Shown piece by piece: positions 5,141 through 31,853 of a stretch of 32,000 bases of DNA. The DNA is from Ferroglobus placidus DSM 10642 (GTDB lineage: Archaea; Halobacteriota; Archaeoglobi; Archaeoglobales; Archaeoglobaceae): NCBI RefSeq assembly GCF_000025505.1, contig NC_013849.1, positions 540,001 through 572,000 on the forward strand, read 5' to 3'. Position numbers and translations under genes: made by a program. Position 1 is the first letter of the stretch; every line of letters starts with the position of its first letter. The notes beneath the pieces were generated by a model. The model ran no database searches. It saw only the letters and a program-made list of their open reading frames with translations, and had not been told where the DNA came from.

Positions 5141-7570
5141 ATGTCAAAACGGTATATTATGCTGGCAGGGAGAGTATTGCTCTCCCTACTAGCACTATTG
5201 ATATTAGTGGGCACAGCCTTAGGAGAAGAGCCAACAAAGAACAACGTTTCAATCAACACGACACCAGATCTCTGGTTGAGCAATGGAATTATAGGCATAG
5301 ACTTTCATTCGTGGGGATCAGACAATTTTCAGTATCCTTTGGGTTCGAACAACCTGTGGTATGGGGGAGGAATAAGATTTGCAATAAGATATGATGGGGT
5401 GTTTAAGTGGAGCCATAATGGCTGGCTACCATCAGCTCCAGCGCTTTCAGTTGTAGAATCCATGCATCTTGTAGATGATACGCCTGAAAAGAAGGTTGCA
5501 GTTGGAGTTGTTGCCGATGCTAATATAGAAATTAAAACAGAAGTTACGCTTCTCAAAGATAAAAAATGGGTTGCGGTGATTTACACGATTAAAAACAAAG
5601 CGAATCAGTCGCTTTCTGTTAAGTTCTACCAAGGGGCAGACTTTGATGTCTATCATATGTCATTTTGGAACGATGCCGGAAAATATGATCCAGAGCTAAA
5701 CCTTCTATATCAGTGGGATACCAGAGGCCATCCATACGTTGGAATCGCATCACCGCTGAAGCCCACGAAGTACGACGTAACCTATTGGTGGAGTATGTGG
5801 AACAGGATAAGAAGTGACTCGCTGGCGAACGGCACGAGCTATAGCGGAGATGTTGGTGTTGCATTTGAGTGGGACCTCGGAACACTTCATCCCGGAGAGG
5901 AGAGGGTTATTCCGGTGATAATAGCAGCTGGCTCGAGTTTGGAAGAACTCAAAAGTGAGGTCGCGGAAGGGTTGAACTTCTTGGCTCCCAAACCGTATAT
6001 CGAATGGGTTAAAGTAGTTCCGGAAACTCCTGAAATGCTCGAAGAGTATACTATTCTCGCAAGCGTTAGGAATCCGAGCGATAAGCCAGTAACTGTGACG
6101 TTGTGGTGCAACGAAACTGGATTGCTCGTTGAATACGACGACCAGCTTTTGATTCCTCCAGCCAATAAGAGTCAGACCTTGACGATTCCACCTCACAGCA
6201 ATGTAACTTTCAGCTTCAAGTACAAGCACTACTGGAGGTGGTTGAAGCCTTTTGAAATTATTACGGGAAGTGATATAAATACTGTGAAAGAAATTCTGAA
6301 ATTAGTACCAAACGAGAAAATACCAGAAATTATCCGTTCATCGCTAAAAATTTGGGAGATAGTTGAATATGCCACACTTACAGGAGCAAAACCAACAATA
6401 ACCTATCACTATAACTTGCGATCAAACGAAGTATTGAATTCACAAAACATAAGCACCAGAGTAGTAGTTCCATTAGTAAAAATCGATTCCCTTATATATT
6501 CTATAGGAATCGGAGTAATAAGTGGAACATTTACAGGAGTTGGGTTATCAGGAATTTTCGCACCAGAACCAACAACAACGGCCATCGGAGGAATTCTTTT
6601 AATTGGTGAAGGTCTCACATCTTTACTTGTTAAAGAGGGAATTAAAATAGCAACCGATCCAGACTCAGACTACACACAACCAGTTGTCCTCGAACCGATA
6701 ACAATCCCTGAACTCGATGAATATCCTGACAACCCCGTCAAAGATATGGTTAAACAGTACACTTTACTCGCATCCGAAGCGAAAGCTTTCAGCGAAGCGT
6801 GGGCTAAATACCTTGGAGCTAAAATGGTGAAGGACACGGAATGGGAGAGAAGACAGCTCGTATCAGCTTACTACTACCTGAATCTTTTAGTGAACGATTA
6901 CGCTGTTTTAAAAGAAAAAGCTGAAGTGGCAATAGATTACCTGCAATCGATGGGGTTGAATATAACTGAAGAAGATGTAAGTTACGTAAAGAAAAACATA
7001 ACAGAGAACGGATTACCAGAGATAGAGGTGGAACTACTGAAAAAATTCGGATTAAGCAACGAAGAAATCAACGCAGCCAAGGATATAGTTTTAATGCTAC
7101 CGAACGAAACAATCATCAACTACAATGAAACAATTTTAGGAGGGATGGAAGTTCAGCAAACTGTCCTGGGCTGGATTGCAAATAACTTAACGACAGAGAT
7201 AAACGAAGTTGGATTTGTAAACGCAACCGTAGATGTAGACCCAGACACGATAAATCTGAAGTCAAAAGGCAAATGGATAACAGCGTACATCGAAATACCG
7301 GGCTATGATGTAAGCAAGATAAACATCTCTACAGTTTACCTGAACGGAATAATACCAGCTATAAACGATCCAAAGTACGGATTTGTGAGAAACCCTGAGA
7401 TCAAGGATAGAGATGGAAATGGCTATCCAGAGCTGATGGTCAAATTCGACAGGCAAGAAGTCAAGAGGGTGCTGAGGGGAGGAAACGTTACACTGTTCGT
7501 GATTGGAGAGATTGATGACAAGTTCTTTGTCGGAAATGGTGAGATAAGGGTCATGCTGGGGTGTTGCTGA
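5141..7570 (+). CDS. Large secreted, probably N-glycosylated surface protein carrying copy 1 of the C-terminal repeat module
   Basis: The protein is 809 aa, or 803 aa from ATG 5159. It has an N-terminal signal-like helix ending TALG/EEP and more than 15 N-x-S/T sequons. A Gly-rich hydrophobic stretch sits mid-protein, followed by a helical region and then the C-terminal module VNATVDVDPDTINLKSKGKWITAYIEIPGYDVSKINISTVYLNG...DRDGNGYPELMVKFD...NVTLFVIGEID. Confidence 0.8.
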   Translation: MSKRYIMLAGRVLLSLLALLILVGTALGEEPTKNNVSINTTPDLWLSNGIIGIDFHSWGSDNFQYPLGSNNLWYGGGIRFAIRYDGVFKWSHNGWLPSAPALSVVESMHLVDDTPEKKVAVGVVADANIEIKTEVTLLKDKKWVAVIYTIKNKANQSLSVKFYQGADFDVYHMSFWNDAGKYDPELNLLYQWDTRGHPYVGIASPLKPTKYDVTYWWSMWNRIRSDSLANGTSYSGDVGVAFEWDLGTLHPGEERVIPVIIAAGSSLEELKSEVAEGLNFLAPKPYIEWVKVVPETPEMLEEYTILASVRNPSDKPVTVTLWCNETGLLVEYDDQLLIPPANKSQTLTIPPHSNVTFSFKYKHYWRWLKPFEIITGSDINTVKEILKLVPNEKIPEIIRSSLKIWEIVEYATLTGAKPTITYHYNLRSNEVLNSQNISTRVVVPLVKIDSLIYSIGIGVISGTFTGVGLSGIFAPEPTTTAIGGILLIGEGLTSLLVKEGIKIATDPDSDYTQPVVLEPITIPELDEYPDNPVKDMVKQYTLLASEAKAFSEAWAKYLGAKMVKDTEWERRQLVSAYYYLNLLVNDYAVLKEKAEVAIDYLQSMGLNITEEDVSYVKKNITENGLPEIEVELLKKFGLSNEEINAAKDIVLMLPNETIINYNETILGGMEVQQTVLGWIANNLTTEINEVGFVNATVDVDPDTINLKSKGKWITAYIEIPGYDVSKINISTVYLNGIIPAINDPKYGFVRNPEIKDRDGNGYPELMVKFDRQEVKRVLRGGNVTLFVIGEIDDKFFVGNGEIRVMLGCC
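7220..7432 (+). repeat. 213-bp perfect direct repeat, copy A (inside the 809-aa gene)
   Basis: I compared it base by base with 8221-8433 and found 213/213 identical. Mismatches occur immediately on both sides. Confidence 0.95.
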
Positions 7571-7851
7571 TGAAGACCTTTTTTATTTTTATCGCAACAG
7601 TAGTAGCTCTGATATTTATGGTCTACAGCCTCGGTAGTTTTATAGATACCCTATTACGAAATCCTGAATCTCTTTCTCTATCTTCTTTCGCAACCACGAT
7701 TTTCTGGATTGCTGTTTGGGCATATATGAATAAATATTTACTCGAATATAGAGGGATTAAAGTAAAAACTAGAATATTTTTATTGGGTATATTATTAGTT
7801 CTAGCGACGTTTATAGGAGCTCAAATAGTAATATCTATCTTTGCAAGTTGA
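7570..7851 (+). CDS. Small 3-TM membrane protein, translationally coupled to the 809-aa gene
   Basis: The ATG at 7570 overlaps the upstream stop (TGATG). A GGGGTG SD-like element lies 7 nt upstream. An alternative GTG start is at 7561. There are three hydrophobic helices. Confidence 0.6.
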   Translation: MKTFFIFIATVVALIFMVYSLGSFIDTLLRNPESLSLSSFATTIFWIAVWAYMNKYLLEYRGIKVKTRIFLLGILLVLATFIGAQIVISIFAS

Positions 7852-7974
7852 AGTAGTGGTACCTCGCTATGTAGGTTACGGAAGGAGATAATAATATCAT
7901 ATAACAAAAAATTTATTATAAAGTAGTATAATCTATTACAGCACATAATACTCGTCTTAACAGAATTTGTAACG

Positions 7975-8565
7975 ATGAACGAGATCGTTATAGAAGTTGT
8001 TAATATACCTAAATTTCTTGATGAGTTTATCAATTACGCGAGGAAATTGGGTTACAGCGACGAAGATATCGCCAACTTCACGAACATGCTCATCGCCGTG
8101 AACGACTCGCTCGTAATCAACTACGATAAAACGATCCCGAGTCTGTTCAACCACACAAACTATTTCGTCAACCAAGTGGTGGAGACGTTAAATAGAGATA
8201 CATCTAAGTTCATTACTGTGAACGCAACCGTAGATGTAGACCCAGACACGATAAATCTGAAGTCAAAAGGCAAATGGATAACAGCGTACATCGAAATACC
8301 GGGCTATGATGTAAGCAAGATAAACATCTCTACAGTTTACCTGAACGGAATAATACCAGCTATAAACGATCCAAAGTACGGATTTGTGAGAAACCCTGAG
8401 ATCAAGGATAGAGATGGAAATGGCTATCCAGAGATGACGGTTAAGTTTGATAAAAGTAAATTAAAGAAGATACTCAGGCACGGAAATGTCACACTCTTCG
8501 TCATAGGTGAAGTGGATGGCATATACTTCATTGGGGATGATGTGGTTAGAGTATTGCAGGGGTAA
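7975..8565 (+). CDS. Module copy 2: 196-aa paralog of the C-terminal ~200 aa of the 809-aa protein, with no signal peptide
   Basis: The N-terminal part aligns weakly with residues ~620-690 of the 809-aa protein (LGYSDEDI..INYDKTI vs FGLSNEEI..INYNETI). The C-terminal module includes the 213-bp identical block. Confidence 0.65.
   Translation: MNEIVIEVVNIPKFLDEFINYARKLGYSDEDIANFTNMLIAVNDSLVINYDKTIPSLFNHTNYFVNQVVETLNRDTSKFITVNATVDVDPDTINLKSKGKWITAYIEIPGYDVSKINISTVYLNGIIPAINDPKYGFVRNPEIKDRDGNGYPEMTVKFDKSKLKKILRHGNVTLFVIGEVDGIYFIGDDVVRVLQG
8221..8433 (+). repeat. 213-bp perfect direct repeat, copy B
   Basis: Identical to 7220-7432, offset by exactly 1,001 bp. Confidence 0.95.
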
Positions 8566-8570
8566 TTGCT

Positions 8571-9149
8571 ATGACTGATAGAGAAAAATTCGTGCTTTTA
8601 CAATTCTTTCAATTTTTAATAGTGTGTGCTTTAGCACTGGTGTATGCAGTGACGCATCCCTACGAGTACAGAATTGTCTGGACAGTACCATTAATGACAT
8701 CCATTCTTTCGATTATGGTTCGTATAATTCTTCAAGAATATGTATTTGAACTTCGCGATGAGCGTGGGAGACCGACATCAAGCTGGAACAAATGGCTTTG
8801 GGAGACTGGAACTAAGTACAAGTACTATAAAGTTAGAGATTTTCCAAGCTGGTTTATGCCTTTGCACATAGCAGGATTCATGTTTTTAAGCGCTTTTTAC
8901 TGTTTAGCTATTCCAACTATCATAACTGGCAAATTCATATTCCTCGAGCCAGAATATGCCCATCTTTCAATACCAATTGTAATCTACTACCACTTTGTAA
9001 CAGATTTTGAAGGCTGGAAGAGGTTGTTAAAAGATTATAAAACATTTTACTGCCACATCGCCTATACCACAGCTGGTGCAGTATTCTGGTACCTTTTGAT
9101 GGCAATAGGAGTTTTTCCTAAGCCTTTCGATCTTATGCAACAGTATTAA
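8571..9149 (+). CDS. Multi-TM membrane protein (192 aa), partner of module copy 2
   Basis: It starts 5 nt after the copy-2 stop and has 4-5 hydrophobic helices. It is a paralog of 9551-10135, sharing the motif EYAHLSIPIVIYYHFVTDFEGWKR. Confidence 0.75.
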   Translation: MTDREKFVLLQFFQFLIVCALALVYAVTHPYEYRIVWTVPLMTSILSIMVRIILQEYVFELRDERGRPTSSWNKWLWETGTKYKYYKVRDFPSWFMPLHIAGFMFLSAFYCLAIPTIITGKFIFLEPEYAHLSIPIVIYYHFVTDFEGWKRLLKDYKTFYCHIAYTTAGAVFWYLLMAIGVFPKPFDLMQQY

Positions 9150-9189
9150 AAGCTGAAACTATTGAAAGAGATTTAGAGGTGAAAGAAAA

Positions 9190-9554
9190 TTGGGTATCCA
9201 CGAGCTCGTCACAGTGAACGCAAGCGTAGATATAGACCCAGACACGATAAATCTGAAGTCAAAAGGCAAATGGATAACAGCTTGGATAGAAATACCGAGT
9301 TACGACGTTAGTAAGATAAACATCTCCTCAGTTTACTTAAATGGTATTGTTCAAGCAGAAAACAATCCCAAATATGGATTTGTCAGGCATCCAAAGATCG
9401 AGGACATAGATGGAGATGGCTATCCAAGCTTATGGTCAAGTTCGATAGACAGAAGGTCAAGAAGGCGTTAAGAGAAGGAAAAGTTACAATGTTCGTTATC
9501 GGAAAGATCGATGGTAAATACTTTGTTGGCAAAGATTTGGTGAGGATAATATGA
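9190..9554 (+). pseudogene. Module copy 3: stand-alone module ORF interrupted by a 1-nt deletion
   Basis: A TTG start at 9190 is preceded by the SD GAGGTGA (9176-9182). The reading frame breaks after GYP at ~9427, where -AGCTTATGG replaces the GAGCTGATGG of copies 1 and 2. The +1 frame continues LMVKFDRQKVKKALREGKVTMFVIGKIDGKYFVGKDLVRII and ends at 9554. Confidence 0.7.
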
Positions 9555-10135
9555 GAAGTCAGCAGGAGGTAGTCCTCTATACCCAATTACTTCAATTCTT
9601 TTTTATACTAATCCTTAGTGTTATATTTGGATTCGGATTGCCTTACGAAGCCCGCTTCGTTTGGTTATATCCTTTTGCAACCTCAGGGTTATCGTGTGCA
9701 GCGCGAGTGCTTATCGAACAGACTAAGTACGATCTGGTTGATAAGGAAGGGAGGAAACTTTCCAAGTGGAGAACGAGCGTCTACGAACAGTGGTCAAAAG
9801 GTTACAGAGGTGTAAAGGTAAGAAATCTGCCAGACTGGTTTCTGCCAATTCACATTGCTTTCTTTACAATCATGAGCGTAGCCTATGTGCTGATAGCGTC
9901 ATTTATCGCTGGTGAATTTGTATTTTTCAAAGCAGAATATGCACATCTGTCAATTCCTATCGTCATTTTCTACCACTTCGTAATCGACTTCGAAGGCTGG
10001 AAGAGGATAATCACAAATCCAAAGGCTTTATACTACAGCTTCGCTTACTCAACTGCAGGCGTAATTTTCTGGTTTGTGATGATGCAAATCGGTGTTTTCC
10101 CGAGCTTCAAGGAGTTGTTCGCAGTAACTAAATGA
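9551..10135 (+). CDS. Multi-TM membrane protein (194 aa), partner of module copy 3
   Basis: The ATG at 9551 overlaps the restored stop of copy 3 (ATATGA). A GGTGAGG SD lies 5 nt upstream. It is a paralog of 8571-9149. Confidence 0.75.
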   Translation: MRSQQEVVLYTQLLQFFFILILSVIFGFGLPYEARFVWLYPFATSGLSCAARVLIEQTKYDLVDKEGRKLSKWRTSVYEQWSKGYRGVKVRNLPDWFLPIHIAFFTIMSVAYVLIASFIAGEFVFFKAEYAHLSIPIVIFYHFVIDFEGWKRIITNPKALYYSFAYSTAGVIFWFVMMQIGVFPSFKELFAVTK

Positions 10136-10144
10136 GAATTTTGA

Positions 10145-10387
10145 CAGAAGTTCAATGAAGATTCTAACGACGTAAGTGAAATAAATGTCCTTGCAACTTC
10201 TTTAATGATGTTTGTCAAACCTCCAGAGATTAAGGATAGGGATGGAAACAGTTATCCAGAATTGATGGTAAAGTTCGACAAGCAGGAGGTAAAAAAGATA
10301 CTTAAAGAAGGTAACGTTACGCTGTTCGTTATCGGAAAGATTGATGGTAAGTTCTTCGTAGGGGAAGATGGGGTTGGAGTGAAATAG
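10145..10387 (+). pseudogene. Module copy 4: truncated relic with an internal deletion
   Basis: The in-frame translation is ...NDVSEINVLATSLMMFVKPPEIKDRDGNSYPELMVKFDKQEVKKILKEGNVTLFVIGKIDGKFFVGEDGVGVK. It lacks the N-terminal half of the module and the NGIIPAINDPKYGF segment. No partner gene follows. Confidence 0.5.
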
Positions 10388-29138: not shown

Positions 29139-30944
29139 GTGAATGTCAGAATCTTGCTTTCAATTTTGATAGCATGTTTCTTGTCGTTTCCAGCATCAGC
29201 AATTTCCGAAGTGAATGTAAAATTCGTTAGCTATGTAAAAGATTTTGGATTGTATGTTGAAGAAAAACCATTATACGGTAAAAACGATGAAGTGAAAGTG
29301 TACGTTGATGCTAAGGGTGTAAATCATTTTAGAGCGTATTCCGTAGATTTTGCGTTTGTTATCTACGATCCGGAAGGGTATCCGGTGTTGGGTGCTTTAG
29401 AGCATAAAGAAGGTACTGGCTGGGAAGACGAAGTTTATGCGGTATATACTTTTAAAATTCCAGAAAACTGGATAAACGGTAAATACAAGCTTGATGTTTA
29501 CGTTTTTGATGTCCTGAACACTACTGCTACTTACCAGGAATACAAATCCTTTGTAGATAGATTAATAGAGAAGGGCGAGGCAAGTATAAGTGTTAAAGAA
29601 AAATCGAGAAAGGATGTAGATTACGTCAAAAAAACTGTTTACTTTACGGTGGTTGATTATGTGCCTCCGAAAGTATATCTCTTCGATTCTCATTTAAAAG
29701 CCAAGGAGCTTCCTCCCGGGATGAACAACTCTCTGATCTTTACTGCTTTTAATTCGGGAGAAAAACCAGCTAAATTTTACGTCTGGCTTTACATCGATGG
29801 TAAGAAAGTCTCTAAGAAAAAGGTTGAAATTGGTGCCAAGAAGTACCTTAGAGTTGAATTTGAAATCCCTCAGCTTGAGGTCGGTAAGCATAGAATTGAG
29901 GTAGTGCCCGAATGGAATAATGTCGTTTATGCTAAGGGTTTGCCGATATATGTTCCCCCAATAGTTTTTGACAAACCCGTGCTTATATCTGAGATCGGTA
30001 AGGGGTTTATAGTTCTCTCGAAAAATAACTATGTTCTCGGAAGTGGGGGCGTTTCGAACGAAAAGCAGGGAAATCCAAGTTTTCCGACCGGTGAATACGA
30101 TATGAACAGAGATAATGCGGCTAAAATGATTACCAATATCTTAGCCTACACTTGGCAAAAGGTGAATGGAAAAGGAGATATCGACGTTGCACTCTACATA
30201 AAAAGCGACGATAGAGCTGAGAAAGTTTTGCCAGAGTTATTAGAGTACATTAGCAAGATCAGTGGTGCACCGATAAAATATAAAGGGGTAGTAAGTAAAG
30301 ACGAGCTTGAAGATGTTGATGTACTCTTTTACGTTTCTCCTCATCCCGATTTGAGTGATTTGGAAGAGTTTGTAAAAAAAGGTGGAATTCTCATCGTTGA
30401 TGTATCTACTTACTGGCTACAAATATCGTATCCCTATGACTTTAGAGAAGTCGAGGACTTGTATAGGAGCTTTTTCGATTTTAGCAGTTTAAACAAAACT
30501 GTTTTTATAAAATTAGTTACCGAACTCAAGCTACCCCCTGAGTTAAAGTATGAGAATTTAACGCTGAGCGATTTCCTCGTTAATGTTGGAGAAGAAGTAA
30601 AGATTTCGTTTGACGTGAAAAATGTAGGAGGACCCGGGAAAGTTCCGATTTCGGTTTTTGTGAACGATGAGGAGGTATACAACGAAACAGTGGAATTTTT
30701 CCCGAATGAGCAAAAGCACATAGAACTCACTTACGTTCCGCAGAAAGAGGGAGCATACAAAGTTACGGTTGACGGTATTTCGAAAGTCTTCTTTGCAAAA
30801 GAAATTAAGAAAGAAAACGTTACGGCAAAAGAGAAGGCAACTCCGAAACCTGAAATGAAAAGAAGGGAAAATGCAGCACTTGTAGTAGCACTGGTTGGAA
30901 TTTTAGCAGTTTTAATCGCAATAAGATTGTATTTGAGAAAATGA
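29139..30944 (+). CDS. Cell-surface protein with CARDB-like domains, signal peptide and C-terminal TM anchor
   Basis: GTG start. The signal peptide is MNVRILLSILIACFLSFPASA. Two CARDB-like segments are present, for example VGEEVKISFDVKNVGGPGKVPISVFVNDEEVYNETVEF...YKVTVDG. The C-terminal helix is AALVVALVGILAVLIAIRLYLRK. Confidence 0.75.
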   Translation: MNVRILLSILIACFLSFPASAISEVNVKFVSYVKDFGLYVEEKPLYGKNDEVKVYVDAKGVNHFRAYSVDFAFVIYDPEGYPVLGALEHKEGTGWEDEVYAVYTFKIPENWINGKYKLDVYVFDVLNTTATYQEYKSFVDRLIEKGEASISVKEKSRKDVDYVKKTVYFTVVDYVPPKVYLFDSHLKAKELPPGMNNSLIFTAFNSGEKPAKFYVWLYIDGKKVSKKKVEIGAKKYLRVEFEIPQLEVGKHRIEVVPEWNNVVYAKGLPIYVPPIVFDKPVLISEIGKGFIVLSKNNYVLGSGGVSNEKQGNPSFPTGEYDMNRDNAAKMITNILAYTWQKVNGKGDIDVALYIKSDDRAEKVLPELLEYISKISGAPIKYKGVVSKDELEDVDVLFYVSPHPDLSDLEEFVKKGGILIVDVSTYWLQISYPYDFREVEDLYRSFFDFSSLNKTVFIKLVTELKLPPELKYENLTLSDFLVNVGEEVKISFDVKNVGGPGKVPISVFVNDEEVYNETVEFFPNEQKHIELTYVPQKEGAYKVTVDGISKVFFAKEIKKENVTAKEKATPKPEMKRRENAALVVALVGILAVLIAIRLYLRK

Positions 30945-31188
30945 CGCTCTCCGATTACGAGATACTCGTCTTAAAAAAGTTAAAAAAGGGAAAAGTGTTG
31001 GGGAGATTGCTAAGGAGCTTGGTTTGCCTGAGCCGATAGTAAGAATAGCGATAGAGAGAGTAAAAAATAAAGAGCTGCCAAAAAAAAGAATAGAATTGAC
31101 GAAAAGTGCCATATTTTTACTTATCGATGCGATAATTCTTTATGTTTTATTGAAGATATTAATAGAGGTGGCAAAATGGTTCCTTTAA
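30941..31188 (+). pseudogene. Frameshifted small gene: LuxR/sigma-R4-like HTH fused to a C-terminal TM helix
   Basis: Frame 0 reads MTLSDYEILVLKKLKKGK and then stops at 31037. The -1 frame, entered at the A/G run ~30983-30994, reads KSVGEIAKELGLPEPIVRIAIERVKNKELPKKRIELTKSAIFLLIDAIILYVLLKILIEVAKWFL*. The ATG overlaps the upstream stop (ATGA). Confidence 0.5.
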
Positions 31189-31853
31189 TAGAGGTACTCG
31201 TAGCCATCCTTGGAGTTTCGTTAGTTCTCCTCTACAACTATAAGGAGGATTTGGTGCTGGTGTTAAGGTTTTCAAGAATCAGGAGTAAGGTAAAAGATGT
31301 TATCAGAGAAAAACCATCTGTGAGAAAAAAGATTGTTATTGCGGCGATTGAACTCTCTGTTTTTGTGTTCTTAATTTATCTTGTGTTGACAATGAAAATC
31401 TTTTGGACGGTCGTCGTGTCTAACAGCATGTATCCGACTTTCGAGAGAGGAGACATGGTCCTCGTTCAAACAATATTTGTCGAGCCTGAAAAGGGAGATA
31501 TCGTTATGTTCGTTAGAGAGGATGTGAATTTGCCAGTGACTCACAGGGTCTTAGATGTTAAGGATGGGCTCGTTTATACAGGAGGTGACGCGTCCGGTCC
31601 GGATTCGACGCCGGTACCTAAAGACAAGATCATTGGTGAAGTTGTGACGATTTTCGGAAAACCTGTAGTCGTTAAGGGTGTCGGAAACTATTTTATTTTA
31701 GATGCTAAAGAACTGAGAGACATCACGCCCTTTGGCGAGGAGTATCTCTTCTATAAGAGTTTGGTTGAAGTTTTTAGAACCTATGCTCTGGCAATAATTG
31801 TTATAGCGATTGCGGCTTATCTCTACTTGAGTTTTAGAGAAATTACTTTTTAA
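31176..31853 (+). CDS. Type I signal peptidase (archaeal/ER Sec11-SipW type)
   Basis: Box B is SNSMYPTFERGDMVLV (Ser nucleophile), followed by VTHRV (general-base His) and GGDAS. There are N-terminal and C-terminal TM helices. Confidence 0.8.
   Translation: MVPLIEVLVAILGVSLVLLYNYKEDLVLVLRFSRIRSKVKDVIREKPSVRKKIVIAAIELSVFVFLIYLVLTMKIFWTVVVSNSMYPTFERGDMVLVQTIFVEPEKGDIVMFVREDVNLPVTHRVLDVKDGLVYTGGDASGPDSTPVPKDKIIGEVVTIFGKPVVVKGVGNYFILDAKELRDITPFGEEYLFYKSLVEVFRTYALAIIVIAIAAYLYLSFREITF

Follow-up and report, generated by a model that had tools for sequence, protein, structure and literature searches.

A putative hypervariable surface-protein locus with recombining gene ends in the archaeon Ferroglobus placidus

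Introduction

Why would an intact gene for a secreted protein be followed by several severed copies of its own 3' end, interleaved with genes for small membrane proteins? This question is raised by a locus of Ferroglobus placidus DSM 10642. Within the window, i.e. the whole stretch of 32,000 nt that was analysed (NC_013849.1, positions 540,001 to 572,000), four copies of a ~115-aa C-terminal module are found at 5141-10387, and three of them abut small membrane-protein genes. No papers were retrieved in a literature search for the locus tags Ferp_0633 to Ferp_0637.

In antigenic variation of the pilE/pilS type, one expressed gene is accompanied by silent partial copies. To our knowledge, very little is understood of how archaea recognise and fight one another, and VARTIG is among the few candidate systems. 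VARTIG is a hypervariable module of Thermococcales, described in a purely computational study, that resembles polymorphic-toxin loci and for which the authors found no counterpart elsewhere (Makarova, Wolf, Karamycheva, and Koonin 2021, PMC8416519). A toxin-immunity hypothesis was weighed by these authors, and a toxin domain was not identifiable (PMC8416519). Ferroglobus is absent from the text and tables of that paper, which also reports mosaic multi-Ig/PKD surface-protein loci of Methanosarcinales that recombine and whose C-terminal Ig domain is conserved or homogenised (PMC8416519).

Results

An ORF check returned every reading frame at the coordinates given in an earlier, sequence-only reading of the window. 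All features described here lie on the forward strand. The array opens with the intact gene (5141-7570) of an 809-aa secreted multidomain protein, which carries an N-terminal hydrophobic segment (signal peptide, residues 6-24). In a tblastn search of the window with this protein, the three further module copies were recovered far beyond chance, at 8041-8562 (E 3e-61), at 9196-9432 plus 9423-9551 in two frames (E 1e-42), and at 10169-10363 (E 1e-21, matching residues 723-798). The first of them lies in orphan 2 (Ferp_0635, 7975-8565), a 196-aa ORF that consists of a type 2 tip fragment and module copy 2. Orphan 3 (9190-9554) is a module-only copy, and the frameshift previously noticed in it was traced to a 1-nt deletion after 9426. 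Orphan 4 (10169-10387), rightly described before as a truncated relic, retains only the 3' half of the module by tblastn and alignment and has no partner gene.

Three membrane-protein genes are interleaved with these copies. The gene of partner family A at 7570-7851 (93 aa, or 96 aa from a GTG at 7561; 2-3 TM segments) follows the intact gene, whose stop TGA has one base in common with the ATG at 7570. Ferp_0636 (8571-9149; family B, 192 aa, ~4 TM segments) starts 5 nt after orphan 2, between the stop at 8565 and the ATG at 8571, and the gene of a second family B paralog (194 aa, 9551-10135) overlaps orphan 3 by the 4-nt ATGA at 9551-9554. The tight spacing of modules and partners reported earlier is borne out by these junctions of -1, +5, and -4 nt. 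The spacer between the family A gene and orphan 2 (7852-7974) is AT-rich. GC content drops across the array, and such arrays sit among different housekeeping genes from one genome to another.

The AF2 layout of the 809-aa protein comprises the signal peptide, a beta-sandwich head, an Ig-like domain (residues 286-362), a variable middle, and the terminal Ig-like module. Comparison with the ortholog at a related locus, L087, divides the gene into three parts. Residues 1-368 (5141-6244) exhibit 77-93% amino-acid identity to the ortholog, residues 369-692 (6245-7216) just 10-50% and no DNA similarity, and the terminal module (copy 1, 7217-7567) again 87-97%. The conserved front ends at HYWRWLKP (residues 363-370, with HYWRW at 363), and directly past this motif identity falls from ~90% to ~25%. 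On the DNA level, an identity of ~86% to L087 extends up to position 6256, and the match resumes on orphan copy 2. The polymorphic core, here called the tip and present in the intact gene as the type 1 allele, comprises ~325 residues with a Gly-rich hydrophobic stretch and a bundle of long helices; in the AF2 model the helices span residues 492-690, and residues 363-494 are absent from the model. Homology links the type 1 and type 2 tips. Many distant relatives exist of the head and of the middle unit alike, those of the middle unit (~residues 280-633) being found within many large secreted proteins. The sequence-only reading had placed the conserved element at the C-terminus, and the module is indeed conserved; however, this is half the picture, because the N-terminal 368 residues are conserved too and the variable part lies between. 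By these comparisons the module is, in Archaeoglobales, the conserved 3' flank of a polymorphic gene.

For module copy 1 an Ig-like beta-sandwich is predicted (pLDDT ~90), and structure searches of the PDB and a viral library gave generic Ig matches only, in agreement with the Ig-like domain suggested before. The module, with 299 confirmed stretches in species-representative genomes, is a widespread Ig-like domain that ends many secreted proteins of archaea and bacteria. Its acidic loop is conserved as had been proposed (D123 invariant, D125 at least 90%), while the N-x-S/T sequons, also taken for conserved, are present among close relatives only and lost in distant members. The module alignments contain no conserved Cys column, and a C-terminal hydrophobic segment is found neither in the module copies nor in their relatives; the copies end in RVMLGCC, RVLQG, and VRII, the relatives in RVI. 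Module and partners had been left outside named families, and this was upheld: when all components as well as partner families A to E were scanned with Pfam, NCBIfam, and PADLOC, no curated family was assigned, the only matches being weak ones of family E to DUF5683/DUF6677. A well-conserved and widespread terminal Ig-like domain is without a Pfam model, and the same is true of the head and of the middle unit. None of the components matched a toxin, enzyme, adhesin, or defence domain in Pfam, NCBIfam, PADLOC, PDB, or fold searches. A viral origin was rejected, since the module was not found in the viral contigs searched. An N-truncated fragment of the module was found loose in an unrelated haloarchaeal MAG.

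Membrane proteins do follow copies 1-3, but these small multi-TM partners are not of one kind: the 192- and 194-aa proteins are paralogs (45% identical), and the 96-aa protein is unrelated to both. The partner genes of the Archaeoglobales loci fall into five unrelated families, A to E, which are combined differently in the window, L001, L006, L007, L008, and L087. Family A has a weak homolog in L001 (25% identity, E 5e-4), the 194-aa protein is 68% identical to a 199-aa protein of L001, and family B homologs come after module copies in L001 and L087. In three of four loci a type 2 tip comes with a partner of family B; type 1 tips precede an A partner in the window and C partners in both L006 and L007. 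Directly downstream of the tip-bearing genes compared there is always a small gene, and most undecayed module copies in Archaeoglobales loci have a membrane gene next to them, with junctions of -4 or -10 nt in L001, L006, and L087. The adjacency of module and membrane gene is present in related genomes of this order, whereas outside the first-found loci a small multi-TM gene follows only 4 of 83 module genes. By this survey of 83 genes, recruitment of a membrane partner by the module itself is rejected. One B-family homolog, without any module, adjoins an Mrr-like nuclease gene. Grouping of the module 3' half by partner family was not significant (0.65 vs 0.58 identity, p ~0.12).

Recombination inside the module is directly visible. 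Copies 1 and 2 share a gene-conversion tract of 213 nt with 100% identity (7220-7432 and 8221-8433) between flanks of 30-73%, which the first reading had missed. Between the window and L001, 100% nucleotide identity over 7933-8270 changes to ~75% from 8271 on, and this between-strain breakpoint falls inside the module and inside the second arm of the tract; L001 carries a different partner paralog downstream of its orphan 2 counterpart. L087 combines the same head with a type 2 tip and a B-type partner, the pair that occurs in the window as orphan 2 and the 192-aa gene, while L006 has a different head with a type 1 tip, then a C-type partner. Among about six related loci, all but one from metagenomes or MAGs, the partner genes seem to have been shuffled. 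A metagenome scan yielded one further Archaeoglobales-type locus only, identical with that of L008. Beside the L008/L090 remnant lies a possible integrated element, in which neither an intact tRNA nor a Pfam match was found.

The 196-aa ORF ends in the module, but its homology is not limited to these 115 aa: it aligns to residues 634-807 of the 809-aa protein (174 aa, 61% identity). A hydrophobic segment is absent and therefore also a signal peptide, as noted before. Start codon and reading frame are kept in at least three sources, and in L087 it is the intact gene whose 3' end is of this tip type. Judged from the alignments, the 196-aa ORF is a 5'-truncated alternative gene end, and by comparison with related loci the truncated copies altogether are displaced alternative 3' ends of the intact gene. 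These displaced ends and the recombination within the module both support the likeness to orphan cassettes that had been suspected. Part of the array is plainly decaying, as is seen from the frameshifted orphan 3, the stump left of orphan 4, and the broken module copies of L006. The dN/dS values of 0.07-0.11 for the orphans, 0.15-0.22 for the partners (0.19 for the 194-aa paralog), and 0.09 for the head, which may partly reflect past residence of the sequences within intact genes, point to purifying selection on orphans and partners.

Two mechanisms of programmed variation were considered and rejected. For a DGR, the repeat tract shows zero mismatches, the flanking ORFs scanned include no RT, and no RNA family was found. 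For a shufflon or another invertible segment, the copies are co-directional, and there are no meaningful inverted repeats and no recombinase in the flanks.

Discussion

On balance, and with some reserve, we favour the view that this is a hypervariable, recombining surface-protein locus, built like VARTIG and the orphan-cassette polymorphic-toxin loci. It would consist of one intact gene with a conserved front up to residue 368, a polymorphic middle of ~325 residues, and a conserved terminal Ig-like domain, while the three 5'-truncated pieces downstream, interleaved with membrane genes of two unrelated families, would be remnants of its alternative 3' ends. At the two conserved flanks and inside the most conserved 5' half of the module, where it is demonstrable, homologous recombination would swap tips and the partner genes that follow them, both within one genome and between genomes, and displaced ends would stay behind as orphans. 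The intact protein is presumably located on the cell surface. The abutting membrane genes are probably co-expressed with the intact gene, their products perhaps serving as anchor, receptor, or protective partner, and the variability may serve cell-cell recognition or conflict.

Copy 3 with its frameshift, copy 4 as a stump, the 196-aa ORF without signal peptide, the broken copies of L006, and the loose fragment in the haloarchaeal MAG would all agree with mere debris: an ancestral operon for a surface protein and a membrane protein was tandemly duplicated and now decays, the truncated copies are without function, and incidental gene conversion between repeats accounts for the identical tract. 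Simple duplication, however, leaves unexplained why the partners belong to five unrelated families and why one head carries different tips across genomes. In addition, the retained start codon and frame of the 196-aa ORF and a dN/dS of ~0.1 argue against roleless remains, and we regard this explanation as unlikely.

A conserved front with a variable end, a small membrane gene next to it, and orphan ends with their own partners are also features of a toxin-immunity system. The tip, with its Gly-rich hydrophobic hairpin and helical bundle, would then be a membrane-active toxin delivered to competitors, the membrane proteins the cognate immunity, and the orphans a reservoir as in Rhs/CDI. The predominance of B-family partners after type 2 tips (3/4 loci) is in line with this, and the authors of VARTIG weigh the same hypothesis (PMC8416519). 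However, Pfam, NCBIfam, PADLOC, PDB sequence, and fold searches found no toxin domain, the flanks contain no visible delivery apparatus, and the type 1 tip is accompanied by A or C partners depending on the locus. Moreover, the two tip types are homologous, and the distant relatives of the middle unit reside inside many large secreted proteins. Such a function appears quite improbable to us.

We consider it very unlikely that the 115-aa module and its membrane protein form a dedicated pair, co-expressed stoichiometrically and with the module docked on its partner, as first proposed from the close junctions (also seen in L001, L006, and L087) and compatible with the membrane gene after most undecayed copies in Archaeoglobales: elsewhere such a neighbour is rare (4/83), the partners stem from five unrelated families, the module 3' half does not group with them (p ~0.12), and a B-family homolog exists without a module beside the Mrr-like nuclease gene.

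The sequence-only reading knew of no described system with this arrangement, but VARTIG has the same layout (PMC8416519). Our comparison is drawn from its published description (arCOG07710/arCOG14200) and concerns the layout. In both cases, a signal-peptide protein with Ig-type domains comes first in a co-directed array (here the 809-aa ORF), smaller downstream ORFs match its C-terminal region (here the 196-aa ORF, residues 634-807, and copies 3-4, the module), and pseudogene fragments are present. The downstream genes encode mostly small membrane proteins, their order varies between related genomes, the 3' region bears evidence of recombination, and a toxin domain is identifiable in neither. 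The lineages differ, Thermococcales there and Archaeoglobales here, and two marks of VARTIG are absent from our locus, namely the C-terminal D[ND]NxxxG[GD] motif after a hydrophobic stretch and the pair of conserved cysteines of the most distal Ig domain. While this distal domain is the most variable one in VARTIG, it is here a conserved flank (87-97%) with the variable part (10-50%) upstream. Intra-locus gene conversion is seen in F. placidus, but was not detected in VARTIG.

With the Rhs/CdiA orphan-cassette toxin systems (Zhang et al. 2012, PMC3482391) the locus shares a conserved 5' part, a sharp switch after a short motif, a small gene directly downstream, and an array of 5'-truncated ends, each with a small gene. 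Unlike in polymorphic toxin systems, no toxin domain is recognisable (Pfam, NCBIfam, PADLOC, PDB sequences, folds), a trafficking domain or apparatus is absent, with only a Sec-type signal peptide and housekeeping flanks, and the variable parts are homologous alleles instead of unrelated domains. Furthermore, the gene closes with a second segment that is conserved (the Ig module), an upstream homology handle is missing from the orphans, and partners track the tip type only loosely. The pilE/pilS loci resemble our array in having one intact gene, promoterless 5'-truncated copies nearby, and a conversion tract that this gene shares with a partial copy; here, however, there are just three partial copies, two of them damaged, and pil loci have nothing that corresponds to the interleaved membrane-protein genes. 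In the Methanosarcinales loci, surface-protein genes recombine as well and the C-terminal Ig domain is kept or homogenised, but several full-length genes are present instead of one intact gene with truncated ends and small membrane genes.

The favoured interpretation as a recombining surface-protein locus can tentatively be extended. It is possible, although we hold it for doubtful, that Archaeoglobales possess a system of their own for self/non-self recognition or contact-dependent conflict, without sequence relationship to VARTIG, in which the tip and its co-translated partner are swapped as a cassette and the orphans form a usable reservoir. The exposed helical tip and the membrane partner would be exchanged at two fixed junctions, HYWRWLKP and the terminal Ig domain. 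If this is true, Ig-flanked cassette-switching loci would represent a recurrent archaeal strategy and not a Thermococcales oddity, and the locus would provide what could not be mapped in the VARTIG study, namely recombination junctions at the nucleotide level. A locus of the same logic in Archaeoglobales, though made of other proteins, suggests that one design has been used convergently or in very divergent forms: a variable tip between a conserved front and an Ig domain, with small membrane partners and orphan ends. Since its junctions are visible at single-nucleotide resolution, the locus allows concrete, testable predictions on how tips may be switched.

Array structure and alternative ends

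The sequence-only reading had described an intact 809-aa gene (5141-7570) followed by truncated copies of its C-terminal module (~115 aa), and all of its ORFs were recovered where it had placed them. The count of four modules was also borne out, since a tblastn search of the window with the 809-aa protein gave three further module matches, at 8041-8562 (copy 2, E 3e-61), 9196-9551 (copy 3, split between two frames by the loss of 1 nt after 9426; E 1e-42) and 10169-10363 (copy 4, E 1e-21). The proposed tight gene junctions are present as a 1-base overlap at 7570, a 5-nt spacer before 8571 and a 4-nt ATGA overlap at 9551-9554, and the 809-aa protein has the expected N-terminal hydrophobic signal-type segment, while the 196-aa ORF (7975-8565; Ferp_0635 of Ferroglobus placidus DSM 10642) contains no hydrophobic segment at all. 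This ORF does end in the module, but its homology is wider, covering 174 aa (residues 634-807 of the 809-aa protein). Likewise, membrane-protein genes follow copies 1-3, but they are not of one kind: the 192-aa (8571-9149, Ferp_0636) and 194-aa (9551-10135) partners are paralogs with 45% identity (family B), and the 96-aa partner (7570-7851, family A) is unrelated to them. GC content is 0.37-0.41 across the array compared to 0.44-0.50 in its flanks.

The metagenomic scaffold L087 carries an ortholog of the 809-aa gene that shares its signal peptide and head. Up to window position 6256 the DNA of L087 is ∼86% identical; the match is then lost, and is regained on orphan copy 2 (8015-8553, 80%). 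In the protein, identity is 77-93% over residues 1-368, only 10-50% over residues 369-692 (the polymorphic tip) and 87-97% over the module, with the switch lying directly after a conserved HYWRWLKP motif (residue 363). In L087 the type 2 end belongs to the full-length gene, which is broken by an assembly gap and a frameshift, and is followed with a 4-nt overlap by a 192-aa partner of family B. Therefore, the 196-aa ORF and Ferp_0636 represent an alternative end of the main gene that has lost its 5' part and been displaced, along with the partner belonging to it.

The spacer before this orphan (7852-7974) is rich in AT, and a TATA-box-like run (AAAAAATTTATTATAAAG) lies in it ∼55-65 nt ahead of the ATG. 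The final 42 nt of the spacer (7933-7974, as far as the L001 contig reaches) are identical in the related locus L001. From its sequence, the 196-aa orphan with its partner may have its own promoter.

Other Archaeoglobales loci combine the same parts differently. L006 has a different head with a type 1 tip and a family C partner, then a truncated type 2 copy, to which a second, divergent Ig-type segment is fused, and finally partners of families D and E. L007 consists of a truncated type 1 end with C and E partners, and L001 of a truncated type 2 end with B and A partners, a truncated module with an E partner, and a relic. The housekeeping genes bordering the arrays differ in each genome. The divergent C-terminal segment (...FVAFMELPEGKPNESSIK...TIRLI; by eye) is found at L006 8436-8777, there as an in-frame fusion behind a truncated ordinary module, and at L008 4650-4859, preceding family D membrane genes in both loci. 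In an Archaeoglobus MAG (L004 2363-3522), a 120-aa family B homolog has no module nearby, and it shares 1 nt at its start with the end of the preceding gene, which encodes ATP-cone, Mrr_cat and AF1548-like nuclease domains. A 689-aa ORF without a Pfam match adjoins a decayed array remnant (L008 2280-4349, L090 1826-3895), and its 3' end reads through a tRNA-like sequence (...GFEPTT...). ARAGORN found no intact tRNA at this site; the ORF may be an integrated element with a partial tRNA attachment site.

Recombination and selection

Copies 1 and 2 share a 213-nt tract of 100% identity (7220-7432 and 8221-8433), with 30-73% identity on both sides. Two minus-strand ORFs with the same N-terminal sequence (MYAVIHLPFDFRFIVSGSTSTVAFT; 7153-7290 and 8160-8291) are a by-product of this tract and were rejected as independent genes. 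Window positions 7933-8270 are 100% identical to L001, and identity falls to ∼75% from 8271 onward. This breakpoint lies within the codons of the most conserved stretch of the module (NLKSKGKWIT), and a different B-family paralog stands downstream of it. Since no inverted repeats, recombinase, reverse transcriptase or structured RNA were found at the window locus, ordinary homologous recombination is the simplest mechanism, and the conserved module would serve as its junction.

By the Nei-Gojobori method, dN/dS is 0.09 for the conserved head, 0.07-0.11 for the orphan ends and 0.15-0.22 for three partner families. These ratios indicate that the partners are real genes and that the orphans evolved as coding sequence, part of that history possibly inside intact genes. 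Decay is ongoing, as shown by the frameshifted copy 3, the stump of copy 4 and the broken L006 gene.

The module and the 809-aa protein

The module matched no Pfam or NCBIfam model, and its profile matched no PDB sequence. AlphaFold2, using a 15-sequence alignment, predicted a beta-sandwich with good confidence (pLDDT ∼90 over the module), for which Foldseek against PDB and a viral library found generic Ig-like domains only. The module is not a rarity: 299 stretches with 40-60% identity were confirmed by a profile-guided scan across species-representative genomes, in Hadarchaeota, Thermoplasmata, Bathyarchaeia, Asgard archaea, Halobacteria, Planctomycetota, Chloroflexota, Nitrospirota and others, and another 456 by a metagenome scan; none was found in the viral contigs scanned. 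In 58 of 83 cases it stands at the very C-terminus of the protein. The secreted N-terminal parts ahead of it vary widely and include, by eye from ORF translations, lectin-like domains, beta-helix repeats and peptidase-like regions; Pfam records add fusions with Glug and Kelch. In Hadarchaeota MAG157 at least seven separate module genes lie on different contigs (L010, L011, L014, L015, L018, L030, L035), thus secreted proteins of Hadarchaeota make heavy use of the module as their terminal unit. In a MAG labelled Halobacteria (L086 5188-8408), a gene with an N-terminal part lectin-like by eye ends in the module and is followed by an apparent AbrB/PIN toxin-antitoxin pair and an N-truncated module fragment without membrane partner; orphan module fragments therefore also occur outside Archaeoglobales.

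An exhaustive phmmer search (E up to 0.001) found 232 relatives of residues 1-633, and these separate a head (∼45-285) from a middle unit (∼280-633), each conserved on its own. Three metagenomic proteins (P0028, P0029, P0046) combine the middle unit and the terminal module with different heads, that of P0029 being a PKD domain; other middle-unit relatives carry PKD, NosD/beta-helix, Kelch or beta-propeller domains. Close head relatives end instead in a Cys-rich region containing HExxH. In one head relative, P0020, residues ∼290-370 (IDIKPGSDPNSINIDSKGVVPVAVL...DVDGDGDIDLLLHF) resemble by eye a distant module variant with the same acidic DxDxDG loop. The full-length AlphaFold2 model, confident in part only (mean pLDDT 58), predicts an N-terminal signal helix, a beta-sandwich head, an Ig-like domain (286-362), a bundle of long helices (492-690) and the C-terminal Ig module, and leaves a Gly-rich hydrophobic region (363-494) unmodelled; it had no significant match among PDB folds.

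Comparison with known systems

The suggestion that each module is dedicated to its membrane partner finds no support. A small multi-TM gene follows the module gene in only 4 of 83 cases, one of them L007, and multiple copies were present in only 7 of 84 loci, so that the adjacency is a trait of the Archaeoglobales loci, not of the module. Module 3' halves did not group significantly by the following partner family (0.65 vs 0.58 identity, permutation p ∼0.12, n = 8); covariation therefore does not support a specific module-partner interface.

The likeness to orphan-cassette arrays holds, and the structure is real and non-trivial. Rhs/CDI orphan arrays are alike in form, but the Ferroglobus locus lacks their toxin, trafficking domain and strict tip-partner covariation. 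The closest described system in organisation is VARTIG of Thermococcales, in which the first gene encodes a large Ig-domain protein with a signal peptide, smaller ORFs match the C-terminal ∼200 aa of this protein, pseudogene fragments are present, and the downstream genes encode mostly small membrane proteins, particular membrane clusters following particular Ig branches (PMC8416519). Each VARTIG locus is arranged differently, and its authors noted a likeness to polymorphic toxin systems, with no toxin domain (PMC8416519). This organisation is common to the Ferroglobus locus, which, however, lacks the DNNxxxGG C-terminal motif and the conserved cysteine pair; moreover, the distal Ig domain is hypervariable in VARTIG, while here it is the conserved flank. 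The authors looked for counterparts in other archaea by three approaches, without success, and Ferroglobus is absent from their text and tables (PMC8416519). One of these searches used Pfam Ig-clan profiles, which miss the present module, and this may be one reason why the locus escaped them. Our literature search for later work extending VARTIG found none.

In a second low-GC stretch of the window (0.37-0.39, 29139-31853), a gene for a 601-aa protein, which carries a CARDB Ig-type domain and has no sequence relation to the 809-aa protein, precedes an S24/S26 signal-peptidase-like gene; this stretch may be a further surface-protein island.

The best-supported account, to which we give somewhat better than even credence, is that of a recombining surface-protein locus of Archaeoglobales that resembles VARTIG and whose junctions are mapped. 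Its role may lie in recognition, in adhesion, or in toxin and immunity functions.
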